Assembly: GCA_965197585.1 (NCBI GenBank)
Contig: OZ240215.1
Coordinates: forward strand, 1,600,001-1,664,000
Direction of reading: 5' to 3'
Length of the DNA stretch: 64,000 nucleotides
Source of the DNA: Dehalococcoidia bacterium
GTDB lineage: Bacteria > Chloroflexota > Dehalococcoidia > Plut-88900
The notes under the pieces were generated by a model. It was not told where the DNA came from. It saw nothing but the letters and a program-made list of their open reading frames with translations, and did not search any database. Positions 9,708 to 29,464 of this stretch are shown in pieces. Both the position numbers and the translations under genes were made by a program. The stretch's first letter is position 1. Every line of letters begins with the position of its first letter.

Positions 9708-9749
9708 CCCCTTGCTCTTGTCCTCCTGTCAATCTGAGGCTCCTTCTCT

Positions 9750-9776
9750 GTAATTCCGAGGCTCCGCGAGGAATCT
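9750..9776 (+). repeat. 27-bp intergenic repeat A, copy 1 (consensus GTCATTCCGAGGCTCCGCGAGGAATCT)
   Basis: Near-identical copies at 20383, 35601, 40303 and 45385. Confidence 0.85.
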
Positions 9777-9839
9777 GGGACTTGCCTAGCTTCGTCTCTC
9801 CTCTGTATGTCGCGCCCCATCCACCCTTTCTCGCCCCCA

Positions 9840-9902: not shown

Positions 9903-10535
9903 ATGAAAGCTTTGTCAAAAAAACGTAAGCAAGTCCTTAACGCCATTACTGGCTTTATGGACCGGCACAAGTATCCTCCCAGCGTCCGGGACGTCGTCCA
10001 TATGTGCAGCATGAGCTCTACTTCAGTGGCCGACTACCACCTCAAAGCCCTCGAGAGGGAGGGCTACATCCGCAGGGAGTCGGGCGTATCCCGGGGAATA
10101 GAAGTCATCGGCTACGATGGTCGGGACGCCAACATCTTCAGGGCCCCACTCCTGGGCACCATCGCTGCCGGCGAGCCTCTCCCAGTCCCCACCTCAGAGC
10201 CCTGGGCTTCCTTGGAAACCCTCGAAATTCCCGAGGACATGGTCGGCGGCAGAGAGAATGTCTACGCCCTCAAAGTCAAGGGCACTTCAATGATCGACGC
10301 CCTAATCGACGACGGTGACATCGTCCTCCTCCAGCACGTCAACACCGCCGACGACGGCGATATGGTCGCCGCCTGGCTTGAGGCCGAGGAGGAAGTCACC
10401 CTCAAGCGCCTCTACCGAGAGCCGGATAGGATCAGGCTTCAGCCCGCCAACTCCCAAATGGCCCCCATCTACGTCCACCCCTCTAACCTCTCCGTCAAGG
10501 GCAGAGTCATAGGCGTCATACGCAAACTGGCCTAA
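9903..10535 (+). CDS. lexA: LexA repressor (start moved to ATG 9903)
   Basis: YPPSVRD wHTH, IAAG cleavage site, VKGTSM (catalytic Ser) and VTLKR (catalytic Lys). Confidence 0.97.
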   Translation: MKALSKKRKQVLNAITGFMDRHKYPPSVRDVVHMCSMSSTSVADYHLKALEREGYIRRESGVSRGIEVIGYDGRDANIFRAPLLGTIAAGEPLPVPTSEPWASLETLEIPEDMVGGRENVYALKVKGTSMIDALIDDGDIVLLQHVNTADDGDMVAAWLEAEEEVTLKRLYREPDRIRLQPANSQMAPIYVHPSNLSVKGRVIGVIRKLA

Positions 10536-26089: not shown

Positions 26090-27454
26090 CTACCCCAGCT
26101 CCGAGCTCACGTCGCTTAGGATTTCGTTCAGATTGCTGACTATGTAGTCCACCTCATCCCTTGTCACACACAGTGGAGGACTGAGGAAAATCAGGTTGCC
26201 ACGCTGCCGAGTCAAGATGCTGTGCTTTAGGAAGCCCTTGGTCAGCTTCTCTCCCAGCCCCGAGTCTTCTGCAAACTTCTCCTTCGTGTTCCGGTCCTTC
26301 ACTATCTCCACCGCCGCCAGAAGCCCGAGACCCCCCCGCACGTCCCCGACTATCGGGTGCTCGTACAAGGTCTGAAGTTGCTCATACATGTAAGTGCCCA
26401 TCTCTGCGGCATTCTGCACCAGCCCCTCGCCTTCCAGGATGTCCAGGTTGGCCAGCGACGCCGCGCACGAAACAGGGTGACCGCCGAAGGTCAGCAGGTG
26501 TTTGAACGTCTTATCCTCACCTCCGATGAATGTGTCGGCCACCGACTTCCGAGCCACCGCCGCCCCTATGGGCAAGTATCCGCTCGAAAGGCCCTTGGCC
26601 ATCGTCATTATGTCCGGCTGCAGGTCCCAGTGCTCCGATGCGAACATCTTTCCCGTTCGCCCGAACCCCGTGATCACCTCGTCCACAATGAGGAGCACGC
26701 CGTATTTGTCGCATATCTCCCTGATCGTCGGCCAGTATTCGGGATGAGGCACCATCATAGTCGCCGCCGAAATCGGCTCCGCAATGATCGCCGCTACCGT
26801 CTCTGGCCCCTCGTGCAGTATCGCTCTCTCGAAGTCCCTGGCACACTCCACGTTACACTGACCGGCCATACTGCAGAACTGGCACCGGTAGTTGTTCGGC
26901 TGGGAAACGTGAATGTTCCCCGGGATCAGAGGCCCGAATCCGCTTGTGCCGGGGTATCCTCCCAGGCTCATCAGCGCGAACGTAGCCCCGTGATAGGAGT
27001 TCTGGCGGCTGATGATCTTGTACCGACCCTTGTCTCCCCTCACCTGGTGGTACGCCTTCGCCATCTTCAACGCCGATTCCACCGCCTCCGACCCACCGCT
27101 CACCATGAACACCCGAGACTCCTTGTCCCGTGACAAGCTAGCCAGCCTTGTGGCCAGCTTAAGCGCCGGAACGTTAGTCGTGTTCTCCGGCGAGTATGTG
27201 ATGTGCTGCATCTGCTCATACACCGCATCGGCTATCTCCGTCCGGCCGTATCCAATGTTCTTCAGCCACATCCCCGACAGTACGTCAATGTATTTCCTGC
27301 CATCCGTATCCTCTACCCAGCAGCCCTTCCCGTCTGCCATCACGTGGAGCCCGTCCTCCTTATCGAAGTCGGCTACCTGCTGAGAGTGAGGCCAGAAGTG
27401 ATCGCGGGCCATTTTTTTCAGCTCGTCTGCGCTGGGGGATTGGATAGACGCCAT
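26090..27454 (-). CDS. Class III PLP aminotransferase (omega-amino acid/taurine-pyruvate type)
   Basis: GGSEAVE, SYHG, LIVDEVITGFGRTG and MAKGLSSG motifs. Confidence 0.92.
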   Translation of the reverse strand: MASIQSPSADELKKMARDHFWPHSQQVADFDKEDGLHVMADGKGCWVEDTDGRKYIDVLSGMWLKNIGYGRTEIADAVYEQMQHITYSPENTTNVPALKLATRLASLSRDKESRVFMVSGGSEAVESALKMAKAYHQVRGDKGRYKIISRQNSYHGATFALMSLGGYPGTSGFGPLIPGNIHVSQPNNYRCQFCSMAGQCNVECARDFERAILHEGPETVAAIIAEPISAATMMVPHPEYWPTIREICDKYGVLLIVDEVITGFGRTGKMFASEHWDLQPDIMTMAKGLSSGYLPIGAAVARKSVADTFIGGEDKTFKHLLTFGGHPVSCAASLANLDILEGEGLVQNAAEMGTYMYEQLQTLYEHPIVGDVRGGLGLLAAVEIVKDRNTKEKFAEDSGLGEKLTKGFLKHSILTRQRGNLIFLSPPLCVTRDEVDYIVSNLNEILSDVSSELG

Positions 27455-27604
27455 AACGTGACTCCTTTGGAGAGCATTCCTGAGACTTGTGGGTAACGGG
27501 CACAGCCCCAACTAATCGGGGCCTCTGGCCTCGATTCTATACCCGCCCGCGAGGCTCGGTCAAACCTGTGTACTCATTCGGTAGACTAGCGACACACCGG
27601 GTTT

Positions 27605-28245
27605 TATTCAGTTGTGGGGTTTTGGGTGTTGGTTGTTTTGTTGGGGGGGTGGCGATGGAAGACGCCCGTTTGGCAGAGCTGCTTGTTCGTGGACTTGCAG
27701 CCAGTATGCCCTGATGCTAGATGGTATACACGGACAATTCTCGGGCCAGACGTCCGGCAGAGGCTCCTTATGGGGGCTGTATGCACGTGGGGGCATGTCA
27801 GGGCCAGGGATCCAGCTGTGCGAGGCCCCACAGCCTAACTAATAGTGTCCAAGTTCGCCGGAAAAGGACAGGAGCGAATATCCTCCGGGCACCCCCGCGC
27901 CGTAGCGCCAAACTCCAGCAATGCGGCCCGACGTTCGAGATGGTTCTCCATGGGGGTTAGGCGGTCCGCGGAGTGTATGCTCCGGTCACCCTTGATGCAA
28001 TCTCCCATGCAGGGAGCGGGGTGGGAGCGTGAAGGCCAGGGCGTCTTTCCATCGCCTGGGGGTCAGGGAAGGGTACACGGGACCCGGTGGGGATGAGGAG
28101 ATGGCGCCGGTCGCTTGTGCCGCGGGCCTGCGCGAGGGCCGTTGGGATAGGCTGAGGCGTTGAGTCCTCGGGTGGGGCCGGGTGGACTTCCCTAGTTTTT
28201 GGTTCCTCCTTAAGGTGGTTGAGGGTAGTGGTCGGGTCTAGACCT
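27605..28245 (-). ncRNA. Candidate large (~640 nt) structured non-coding RNA under a LexA-boxed promoter
   Basis: No credible ORF; long-range stems 28064-71/28187-94 and 27651-74/28035-56; many local hairpins including GCGC-UACG-GCGC; G-U pairs mostly favour the minus strand. Confidence 0.55.
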
Positions 28246-28251
28246 GGCTCC

Positions 28252-28281
28252 AATATAGAACATAAGTACTTACGATGTCAA
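28252..28281 (-). promoter_or_regulatory. sigma70 promoter with a LexA-type box between -35 and -10
   Basis: Minus strand TTGACA-18 bp-TATATT; the spacer holds AGTAC-TTAT-GTTCT (28257-70), one mismatch from the GAAC-N4-GTTC core at lexA. Confidence 0.75.
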
Positions 28282-28573
28282 GGGGGTGATGTTACCCCTC
28301 TATGTGAACGGGATCATCTGCCCCTCTCGTCCCCCTCTCCCTCATCCCCGTGCCCCGACATGTGAATCCATTCCACGGGCGGGGCCGCTCACTTGATCAT
28401 CCTTAGTCTGCTAAACGTTACAATTCCATTACATTGTTGGTGTTTCAGATAAACCTGTTGGGGTGTATTGAGGAACGGCGCTTCTCCCCGTCATTGTCCC
28501 TCTATCCTTCCCTGTGATATACTCGCAGACGCTAATTTTAAGGCTATACGGGAAGGGAAAGAGCAACCTAAAC

Positions 28574-29464
28574 ATGGTACAAGAGACCGTAACGGAAGCA
28601 CCAGCGGAAGCACAGGTAGAAGCGCCTCACCCCCAGGAGCAACGCCCTCCCGAGCCCGTGCCCGTAACCATGAAGCTGCTTCTCGAATCAGGCGTGCATT
28701 TCGGCCATCAGACTCGCCGTTGGCATCCCAAGATGAAGCGCTACATCTTCACCCAGCGCAACGGCATCCACATCATCGACCTTCAGCAGACCATTACAAT
28801 GCTCGACGACGCCTGCGATTTCATCCGCTCCATCGTCCTTGAAGGTGGCGAAATCCTCTTCGTCGGTACCAAGAAACAGGCCCAGGACGTAATACAGGAA
28901 GCGGCAGGCCGCTGCGGAATGCACTACGTCAACATACGTTGGCTCGGTGGCACCCTGACCAACTTCAACACTATCCAGTCCCGCATCGACCACCTGGTCC
29001 GACTCGAAGACCAGAAGGAGAAGGGCGTATTCGAGTCCCTCCCCAAGAAGGAGGCGCAGAAGCTCGAGGACAAGATCGTCCGTATGAACCGGCTCCTCGG
29101 CGGCATCAAGGAGATGACCAAGCTCCCCGACGCCGTATTCATCGTCGACCCCGGCAAGGAGGACATCGCCGTCAAGGAGTCCCGACGCGTTGATGTCCCC
29201 CTCGTAGCCATCGTGGACACGGACTGCGATCCTAATCTCATCAACCGCCCGATCCCCGGCAACGACGATGCCATACGTTCCATCAAGCTCATCAGCGGCA
29301 AAATCGCCGACTCCGTCCTTGAAGGTATTCAACTTCGCCAGAGGCTCGCCGAAGAGCAGCAGAAGGCCTACGAAGAGGCCATGGTAGAGCCGGAAGACGT
29401 TTCCCAAACCTTCGTATCCGAATCCGAATTTCAGGACTCCACCCCGTCCACCCCTCAGGAATAG
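28574..29464 (+). CDS. rpsB: 30S ribosomal protein S2
   Basis: [29 protein letters not shown] and [10 protein letters not shown] motifs. Confidence 0.98.

Follow-up and report, generated by a model that had tools for sequence, protein, structure and literature searches.

Analysis of a 64,000-nucleotide stretch of a Dehalococcoidia genome (GenBank assembly GCA_965197585.1, contig OZ240215.1, positions 1,600,001 to 1,664,000 of the forward strand) revealed a mobile repeat next to rpsB. This whole stretch is called the window, and positions are counted from its first letter. The segment from 27569 to 28316 (minus strand) is very probably one copy of a non-autonomous DNA transposon of about 0.75 kb that has no open reading frame (ORF). 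It resembles a miniature inverted-repeat transposable element (MITE) but is larger and GC-rich, and it occupies about 55 sites per genome in one Dehalococcoidia genus. The element is mobile: congeners have empty sites, copies are flanked by target-site duplications of about 6 to 12 bp, and the ends are imperfect TG...CA inverted repeats. An earlier interpretation of this region, made from the letters alone (the sequence-only reading), had described a putative LexA-controlled, large structured RNA at a single locus divergent from rpsB. Its structured, promoter-driven non-coding RNA without a known family has stood, as has one of its three options, that the RNA belongs to a non-autonomous mobile element. 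Its view of a single rpsB-divergent locus was wrong, as the region is a repeat of about 55 mobile copies. The rpsB neighborhood is incidental, because two congeners have no insertion there and another carries one in the opposite orientation.

Comparison of the locus between congeners demonstrated the insertion directly. Genome G005 aligned to window positions 26502 to 27575 and 28326 to 29300 with nothing between them, and 27576 to 28325 (750 bp) was precisely missing. Genome G003 also lacked the element at this locus, and G002 contained it. The empty site reads ...GGGGGACGAG|TGCATAGGTTTGACC... and already contains the promoter of the neighboring aminotransferase gene (TTGACC-N18-TAGAAT), which therefore predates the insertion. 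In G001, a copy of a different class lies upstream of rpsB in the opposite orientation, and 5 nt separate its right end from the rpsB -35 box TTGTCC. This copy is an independent insertion into the same intergenic region. Two further copies were polymorphic. Copy L030 was absent in G003 and G001 and is flanked in the genome of the window (G000) by the perfect 12-bp duplication GTACATGCTTTT, which overlaps the TT of a TTGACA -35 box; copy L040 was absent in G001.

Abutting direct repeats of at least 6 bases were found in 7 of 13 two-ended copies, compared with 0 of 156 mismatched pairings of left and right ends. The left end TGATCCCGTTCACATAGAGGGGTGACATCACC and the reverse-complemented right end agree at 22 of 32 positions; this terminal inverted repeat scored 7, compared with -6.95 ± 3.2 for shuffled sequences, and none of 2,000 shuffles reached 7. 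A TTG started exactly 5 nt past the right end (...GAGTACA) in 16 of 25 right ends. On insertion, the right end comes to lie 5 bp ahead of the TTG in a host -35 box, in the orientation of the downstream gene, and the duplication spares the host promoter. A solo left end (TGATCCCGTTCACATAGAGGGGTGACATCACCCCCTTG) was observed fused to the groES promoter region (L102:2462-2570), which has a CIRCE-like inverted repeat, TTAGCACTC-N9-GAGTGCTAA. This solo end may be the footprint of a deletion between two -35 boxes.

When the region was compared by blastn with the 3.43-Mb genome that contains it, 69 matches were obtained. With finer blastn, the 5' module, which runs from the promoter through the 5' strand of the closing stem, was found 54 times, the interior present in the window 12 times, and the 3' module at least 13 times. 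The core motif of the internal rod-like hairpin (the rod) occurred 57 times in the genome with at most one mismatch, and two further copies lay outside the blastn filter. With the rod covariance model, one copy was detected in the window. The element was found by blastn in all eight other genomes of the genus and in none of 32 other genomes. A covariance model of AAGGAGG plus the rod matched the own genome and all five sampled genus members, and it matched none of a sample of 145 other genomes of the class from 109 other genera. An exact-motif scan of public genomes gave at least 91 stretches, and all among the matches listed were titled Dehalococcoidia metagenome-assembled genomes (MAGs); among metagenome contigs, 5 short contigs of one assembly were found. 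No match was obtained by blastn against phages and plasmids, and the rod motif had no match in viral contigs. One viral-contig match of the promoter-cassette motif was rejected as a chance match because it lies inside a coding region and has no -10 context.

The copies share a common layout (for the window copy, see Table 1). On the 5' side, GTGACAY is followed after 7 nt by TTGAC, a spacer with an RNAC-N4-GTNC dyad, and TATATT or TATTAT. Downstream of the promoter lie a short 5' hairpin of palindromic sequence, AAGGAGG in nearly invariant form, the rod, and CAGGCGAUGGAAG. After an interior of about 320 to 500 nt come CUUCCAUCGCC, a C/A-rich stretch of about 45 nt, and CAAYYGAAKA; the 3' end carries 0 to 3 mini-hairpins (UCCGCCUnnGGAGGA) and then CUGAAUAA. 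The distance from the -35 box to the closing stem ranges from about 550 to 745 bp, and the whole element measures about 750 bp. The G+C content is 0.56 to 0.66 across the element and 0.61 to 0.71 for rod matches. The interiors fell into nine blastn clusters, seven with at least two members and two singletons; in our reading, classes A, C, and E share some blocks. The C/A-rich tail might conceivably serve as a Rho-loading region. A module of about 20 nt that forms a mini-hairpin (TCCGCCTnnGGAGGA), in many cases with GGAACA in front of it, was observed at varying positions, e.g., in L045, L051, L065, and L071. It lies inside the apical region of the rod in some copies and zero to three times in the tail, and 30 of its 46 matches in the genome are within 1.6 kb of an element copy.

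Table 1. Parts of the element copy in the window and of its right flank
Feature	Position	Strand	Support or remark
Left terminal inverted repeat TGATCCCGTTCACATAGAGGGGTAACATCACC	28285..28316	-	Within the 750 bp absent from the G005 empty site; 16 places in genome
Own sigma-70-type promoter: -35 TTGACA (28281-28276), -10 TATATT (28257-28252)	28252..28281	-	11/12 consensus positions; kept in all aligned copies
Operator-like dyad AGTAC-TTAT-GTTCT in promoter spacer, resembling a LexA box	28257..28270	-	7/8 GAAC/GTTC core positions
Shine-Dalgarno-like TAAGGAGG, no start codon after it	28205..28212	-	AAGGAGG core nearly invariant between copies
Rod (domain 1): helices UAGGGAAG/CUUCCCUG, ACCCGG/CCGGGU, GAGGA/UCCUC, apical GGCC/GGCC hairpin	28064..28194	-	Covariance model match 28060-28211
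Closing stem, 5' strand GGCGAUGGAAAGACGCCC	28039..28056	-	Minimum-free-energy folds and closing-stem survey of copies
Variable interior, sequence class A (domain 2), ~370 nt	27668..28038	-	12 class-A copies among 9 interior classes
Closing stem, 3' strand GGGCGUCUUCCAUCGCC	27651..27667	-	Stem seen in 43/54 copies plus 1 partial
C/A-rich, G-poor tail ending in conserved CUGAAUAA (27611-27603)	27603..27650	-	Layout comparison of copies
Right terminal inverted repeat CCGGTGTGTCGCTAGTCTACCGAATGAGTACA	27569..27600	-	Right end 25 times in genome
Target-site duplication, right-hand copy CAGGTTTG	27561..27568	-	Left-hand copy at 28324-28317 degenerate, GGCAGATG
Host promoter of class-III aminotransferase gene, TTGACC-N18-TAGAAT	27534..27563	-	Outside the element; present in the empty site

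A promoter scan of the region found three promoter-like sites, compared with 0.6 ± 0.8 in shuffled sequences. The minus-strand promoter TTGACA-N18-TATATT at 28281 to 28252, named in the sequence-only reading, was recovered with 11 of 12 consensus positions, together with its spacer dyad (AGTACTTATGTTCT at 28270 to 28257) and the LexA-type box before lexA (AGAACGCCCGTTCC in the lexA promoter). Other details of that reading also held. The GC skew is inverted relative to the flanks on both sides, no ATG, GTG, or TTG follows TAAGGAGG at 28212 to 28205, and the 98-amino-acid (aa) ORF starts at a TTG inside the -10 box. That ORF is the longest of the region. A coding function was weighed in which AAGGAGG acts as a ribosome-binding site for one or more small proteins and CTGAATAA provides the stops. 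In its favor are the near-invariance of the Shine-Dalgarno-like motif, the TGA and TAA that the conserved CTGAATAA supplies in two frames, and the existence of ORFs of 57 to 98 aa. Against this, the aligned copies have no start codon after the motif, the indels between copies are not multiples of three and break every frame, and the interiors belong to at least seven unrelated sequence classes. The ATG in GGCGATGG opens frames of only 4 to 31 codons, which in our reading depend on the class. No conserved ORF was found in the element. The chance that it encodes a protein is thus close to nil, and this interpretation was rejected on the missing start codon, the frame-breaking indels, and the unrelated interiors.

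Minimum-free-energy (MFE) folds of individual copies gave the same rod each time, and the rod and long-range stem proposed earlier reappeared in the window copy (28194 to 28064, and 28056 to 28039 paired with 27667 to 27651, 17 to 21 bp). RNAalifold on a MAFFT alignment of 54 rods yielded 12 invariant pairs only, and a column-pair scan of this alignment brought no improvement. Because indels misalign the arms of the rod, a seed of 14 copies with a hand-drawn structure was used for realignment with a covariance model. Helix 2 was set in the previously proposed register ACCCGG/CCGGGU, in which an A-U to G-C exchange is seen by eye. The realignment comprised 84 matches at 82 loci of several genomes (83 distinct rows). 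In these rows, 92.8% of the cells were paired, compared with 86.0% in shuffles and at most 58% with slid partners. Compensatory changes on both sides occurred in 15 of 26 pairs, a number reached by 1 of 500 shuffles. There were 117 double-change cells, and none of the 500 shuffles reached the observed cell count, paired fraction, or covariation score. All four pairs of the apical hairpin covary (variants GGCC/GGCC, GGGCGGC/GCCGCCC, and GGUCGC/GCGACC), as do all six of helix 2 and five of eight in helix 1. The helices GAGGA/UCCUC and GGC/GCC never vary and are therefore uninformative with respect to pairing. These results indicate that the base pairing of the rod is maintained between copies.

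The closing stem was detected in 43 of 54 copies and partially in one more; in the other 10, the 3' strand was missed or mis-assigned by the script. Its constant 10 bp carry an extension that switches together with the interior class: GACGCCC/GGGCGUC is found with A, C, D, E, H, and I, and GGUCC/GGACC with B, F, and G. The stem is kept around at least seven unrelated interiors. For the class-A interior, RNAalifold on 15 sequences predicted 78 pairs, of which 7 showed a compensatory change; the domain-2 hairpins listed in the sequence-only reading are thus plausible and not established. Folding energies compared with shuffled sequences were unremarkable, with z-scores of -1.1 for the whole 646 nt, -1.36 for the rod, -2.52 for domain 2 (27646 to 28062), and +1.4 for the plus strand.

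Searching the whole window against Rfam 15 at gathering thresholds revealed no match, with 6S, tmRNA, RNase P, SRP, OLE, GOLLD, ROOL, HEARO, raiA, and group I and II introns included. At E ≤10, the segment 27300 to 28600 gave only a 21.8-bit chance match to a flavivirus 3' untranslated region model, and representatives of the nine interior classes had no match at E ≤0.01. ARAGORN predicted no tRNA or tmRNA gene. The conclusion that the structured RNA matches no known RNA family is supported by these searches.

Contigs from RNA libraries matched positions 27646 to 28176 at 90 to 99% identity; they derive from four libraries of two studies and are labelled sponge metagenome. One contig of 419 nt covers 27646 to 28062 with 13 differences. 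In one RNA run, rpsB was covered at 99 to 100% identity, which indicates that the organism or a near relative was present in the sample. The 5' leader (about 28177 to 28270), the C/A tail (27570 to 27645), and the start of the aminotransferase gene were left uncovered by the contigs, from which nothing was concluded. A contig joint from 27670 to 28090, with only 20 letters on one side, probably derives from a copy with a different interior. Contigs of both studies end at 27646, one of them beside adapter letters. This position could be the 3' end of the RNA, five bases past the closing stem, or equally an assembly break where the sequence common to all copies begins.

The conserved pairing might also be explained at the level of DNA. 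The element would then be a selfish repeat whose rod and stem are palindromic DNA used in transposition (transposase binding or single-strand hairpins), with the RNA as a by-product. Stable stem-loops are general in MITE transcripts according to PMC10969869. The earlier claim that G-U pairs favor the minus strand did not hold, as the rod cells contain 60 GU/UG and 87 AC/CA combinations. AC/CA mismatches are thus at least as common as GU, and the opposite strand folds about equally well; the MFE z-scores are weak, and the inner block of the closing stem swaps with the interior as expected from cassette exchange and not from stepwise compensation. However, the rod is asymmetric, lies far from the ends, and includes the invariant single-stranded segments GAGGACUCAACG, CCCAUCCCAA, and GCCAUCUCCUC. 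Compensatory changes occur in three of its helices, every copy examined has a strong promoter and the invariant AAGGAGG just before the rod, and the region is present in RNA libraries. We therefore consider a purely DNA-level role rather unlikely. The minus strand was taken as the RNA because of the promoter only.

The regulation of this promoter was analyzed by comparison with lexA. The lexA gene (9903 to 10535) is preceded by TTGACA-N17-TATTAT and then AGAACGCCCGTTCC. Perfect GAAC-N4-GTTC sites, which we take to fit the LexA box of the Gram-positive type, are found at only 32 places in the genome. At promoters, they occur before lexA, before a gene for a radical-SAM/helix-hairpin-helix (HhH) protein (AAGAACACAAGTTCTA), and before two others. 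The motif assignment is sound because perfect boxes stand at lexA and at this repair-type gene. The radical-SAM/HhH gene (L196:2096-3484 (-), G000:C1 ~1347459) has the clearest SOS-type promoter besides lexA: its perfect AGAACACAAGTTCT box abuts a -10-like TATTAG, and the upstream GTGTGACCCCTTGACA resembles the element cassette. In front of recA, the equivalent position holds no more than a half site. In the window, a separate hairpin repeat (…ATTCCGAGGCTCCGCGAGGAATCTGGG…), similar to repetitive extragenic palindromic sequences, was observed at 9745 to 9790 between lexA and its upstream gene; it recurs beside several element copies.

In the element, the dyad lies within the promoter spacer and abuts the -10 box, so that operator and core promoter overlap as in the LexA regulon. 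Its conservation in the spacer argues for an operator. Scoring of 52 element promoters (two further copies were mis-anchored by the script and stand outside this set) revealed an AC-N4-GT core in all 52. None had all eight core positions, 21 had seven, and 31 had six; all 52 thus lack the palindromic GAAC-N4-GTTC operator of the LexA regulon. The dyads are of three types, GTAC-N4-GTTC, GAAC-N4-GTGC, and GTAC-N4-GTAC. The cassette GTGACAY-N7-TTGAC-dyad-TATATT was found at 18 further places in the genome beyond the element copies. These include a second, apparently non-coding repeat family (at least eight copies), a tRNA, an AAA_15/DUF3696 ATPase gene, and two paralogous operons for proteins of 132 to 134 aa and 430 to 463 aa (L227:1275-3279 (-) and L228:830-2831 (-)). 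In PHROG, the larger proteins weakly resemble terminase large subunits (E = 7e-6 and 8e-5); they matched nothing in Pfam or among PDB sequences, and the 132- to 134-aa partner matched no known family. These operons may be remnants of a prophage-like or gene-transfer-agent-like unit. Because the same cassette precedes them, a repressor of the prophage type is as good a candidate as LexA.

These data bear on the reading of the locus as a host gene for a LexA-repressed, DNA-damage-inducible large structured RNA (a scaffold or ribozyme). The promoter, the dyad, and the lexA box are real, perfect boxes stand at lexA and the radical-SAM/HhH gene, every scored promoter keeps AC-N4-GT, and no Rfam family matches. 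On the other hand, a host gene is at odds with 54 to 57 copies, presence/absence polymorphism, and target duplications. The missing perfect box in all scored promoters, the mere half site of recA, and the use of the cassette before terminase-like operons, an ATPase gene, and a tRNA also weaken it, with a phage-type repressor an equal candidate. A host-encoded SOS RNA is accordingly possible, but we do not favor it.

The second repeat family carries the cassette and no rod. It was observed in G000:C1 near 62860 (covered by L231), 684518, 1590859, and 2280200 and, at other sites, near 3022084, 3035253, 3062928, and 3386770. After the promoter, it reads CAGGCCCGAC...CGTCGGCCCTAATCAAGGAAAGG...AAGGAGTCCCATGAGTCGCACC and contains an ATG after AAGGAG, a candidate start of a small gene. 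A block of 110 to 185 nt is shared with class-B interiors.

A co-oriented ORF starts within 700 nt downstream of 39 of the 54 copies, as determined with an ORF heuristic, and one copy precedes a tRNA. The Pfam families of the 39 downstream ORFs are unrelated and include six Amidohydro_2 proteins, oxidoreductases, transporters, leucyl-tRNA synthetase, a class-I E/Q tRNA synthetase, Lgt, FAD synthetase, and one UvrA; 3 of the 39 had no Pfam match. The element is therefore not the leader of one regulon. It might still act as a domesticated portable promoter, with inducible read-through into the co-oriented gene and with the structured RNA and C/A tail as a leader or insulator that sets the read-through. 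MITE-borne promoters are known to drive adjacent genes (PMC10969869). The placement 5 bp before the host -35 box, co-oriented with the gene, at 16 of 25 right ends, the 39 of 54 copies with a co-oriented ORF, and the lack of an intrinsic terminator in 27350 to 28650 are consistent with such a function. It is nevertheless improbable, given that the downstream genes have no common theme, orthologous loci in congeners are free of the element, and the host promoters are intact, which makes the genes independent of it; the orientation bias is equally explained by the insertion mechanism. With respect to the chromosome, copies in G000:C1 were observed mostly on the plus strand at 0.38 to 2.54 Mb and mostly on the minus strand at 2.68 to 2.98 Mb, and only one copy was seen below 0.38 Mb. 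This strand bias probably follows gene orientation relative to replication.

Searching for a partner enzyme revealed no transposase beside the solo left end upstream of groES or beside a solo right end at G000:3316181. In copy c660725p, an rve-type insertion sequence (IS; L029:1184-2531) is inserted between the left end and the -35 box. Its 423-aa rve-domain gene, the only transposase gene within any copy, was ruled out as a partner, as it belongs to a single-copy IS with its own inverted repeats. At the L040 site, G004 has a 2.5-kb insert (L100:3433-4791; G000 copy c1286569p) with a 452-aa ORF, which, read by eye, may encode a fusion of a DNA methyltransferase and an HNH nuclease. The TnpB zinc-ribbon domain PF07282 had no match in the genome (92% completeness). 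The IS110-family DEDD transposase domain had nine matches. Two of these DEDD genes immediately precede element copies and are oriented like them (G000:C1 1396256 and 3412979) and seven lie elsewhere, and at least 52 other copies have no DEDD gene nearby. An IS-end-like motif, AATAAAACAGGGCGGGTGGG, was found 139 to 149 nt before the rod in eight copies and also at three rod-less sites, of which at least one (1590747) is about 110 nt upstream of a promoter of the second family. The DEDD genes beside copies look like site-specific IS insertions next to the promoter cassette.

These genes raise the question of an RNA that acts as a guide, bridge, or cofactor of a recombinase encoded elsewhere, most copies being guide-only derivatives as in IS110/IS1111 or IscB/TnpB systems. 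Such a role would fit the two co-oriented DEDD genes among nine matches, the motif AATAAAACAGGGCGGGTGGG before the rod in eight copies, and the shape of the rod, a hairpin with internal loops on both sides. IS110-family and IS200/605 elements are not known to have target duplications or inverted ends, whereas the copies described here have both. Furthermore, the loops of the rod are conserved while the target flanks differ apart from TTG, only two of the nine DEDD genes adjoin a copy, and neither the TnpB zinc ribbon nor an Rfam family was matched. A guide function is thus very unlikely.

The element was compared with known systems. HEARO, the omega RNA of IscB (IS200/IS605), is a large structured RNA that was noticed from its many copies per genome in a mobile element, many of them ORF-less. 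The present element is likewise multi-copy and ORF-less, with a large structured RNA on a mobile element; it differs in having no Rfam match, no TnpB-type domain in the genome, and both inverted ends and duplications. The bridge or seek RNAs of IS110/IS1111 are RNAs with internal-loop hairpins carried by a mobile element. An internal-loop hairpin and IS110-family genes, two of them abutting copies, are also present here. In contrast to bridge RNAs, most copies have no such gene beside them, the loops are conserved despite variable targets, and the element is three to four times longer and has duplications and inverted ends. REP13E12 of Mycobacterium tuberculosis is a repeat that bears a LexA box, and the 6C RNA of Corynebacterium is a C-rich small RNA linked to the SOS response (PMC5014011). 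Both resemble the element as repeated or C-rich non-coding sequences with an SOS-type operator in the promoter, but the box of the element is off consensus in every copy, its LexA site is putative, and its RNA is much larger. The rod with its internal loops is similar to 6S RNA; unlike 6S RNA, the element is multi-copy and mobile, has an additional 400-nt domain, and does not match the Rfam 6S model.

The closest resemblance is to promoter-bearing MITEs such as Correia/NEMIS of Neisseria, as described in PMC10969869. Like these, the element has no transposase gene, many dispersed copies, inverted ends with target duplications that decay in older copies, and sigma-70-like promoters mostly just upstream of genes, and its transcripts fold. 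Its copy number and the absence of an ORF also agree with a MITE. Its size and base composition do not, since MITEs are typically shorter than 500 bp and AT-rich (PMC10969869), compared with about 750 bp and a GC-rich sequence here. The fold of this element is more than a pairing of its two ends and consists of an internal, covarying 130-nt rod and a closed domain with interchangeable interiors. It is also distinguished by its placement 5 bp from a -35 hexamer, and no parent IS is known. In open-access full text, no paper was found that describes this element, a -35-targeting MITE, or a LexA-box MITE in Chloroflexota. In our judgment, the element is new: it is MITE-like but large and GC-rich, it encodes a structured RNA, and it forms a genus-restricted, promoter-targeting family of about 55 copies.

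Several observations weigh against this interpretation. No autonomous element with matching ends was found in G000, and the other eight genomes of the genus were not searched. Recognized ends are few (16 left and 25 right among at least 54 copies); the remaining copies have different repeat families at their flanks, which makes the family a mosaic, and the description as one element with one pair of ends simplifies it. The length of about 750 bp and the G+C content of 60 to 67% are outside the usual MITE range. With respect to the RNA, the rod alignment was fitted to the structure of the model and the copies are related, both of which inflate the pair counts. The wobble pairs do not give the folding strand, so the hairpin may also form at the level of DNA. 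The RNA evidence consists of contigs only, which carry no strand, ends, or level and may include DNA carry-over, and the box of the 52 scored promoters is off consensus throughout.

Together, the data are compatible with the following mechanism. The promoter would drive a minus-strand RNA of about 0.6 kb composed of the 5' hairpin, AAGGAGG, the rod, the closed domain, and the C/A tail. A dimeric repressor, either LexA or a prophage-type protein, would bind the dyad, and the RNAs would then be made upon DNA damage or prophage induction. A DDE-type transposase encoded elsewhere would move the element, and the RNA may serve the element or may have been co-opted by the host. A bolder version, to which we give a slim chance, is that the RNA is the working part of an undescribed mobile or satellite system, in which about 55 promoter-seeking elements would be induced along with a resident prophage-like unit or the SOS response. 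This co-induction is suggested because the operator-bearing cassette is shared with the terminase operons. If so, the rod and the exchangeable domain of about 400 nt would recruit the machinery (RNA polymerase/sigma or a recombinase) that places the insertion 5 bp from the -35 box. Alternatively, the RNA would act in trans on translation through AAGGAGG, the anti-Shine-Dalgarno-like segment CUCCUC, and the C-rich loops.

The elements make up about 1.2% of the genome, which matters for the annotation of these Dehalococcoidia MAGs: the long "empty" intergenic regions that they produce mimic unique RNA genes if one window is read alone. About 75 promoters in one genome carry one operator-like dyad, those of phage-packaging genes included, and this common dyad could subject about 55 RNAs, and the genes downstream of them, to a single stress signal. 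High-copy structured RNAs in mobile elements have repeatedly turned out to be the functional cores of new systems, as with HEARO, now recognized as the omega RNA of IscB, and the non-coding IS110 ends, now recognized as bridge RNAs. The family described here offers a covariation-supported 130-nt rod and a modular closed domain without an Rfam counterpart, and it inserts with unusual precision 5 bp ahead of the -35 hexamer, sparing the host promoter.

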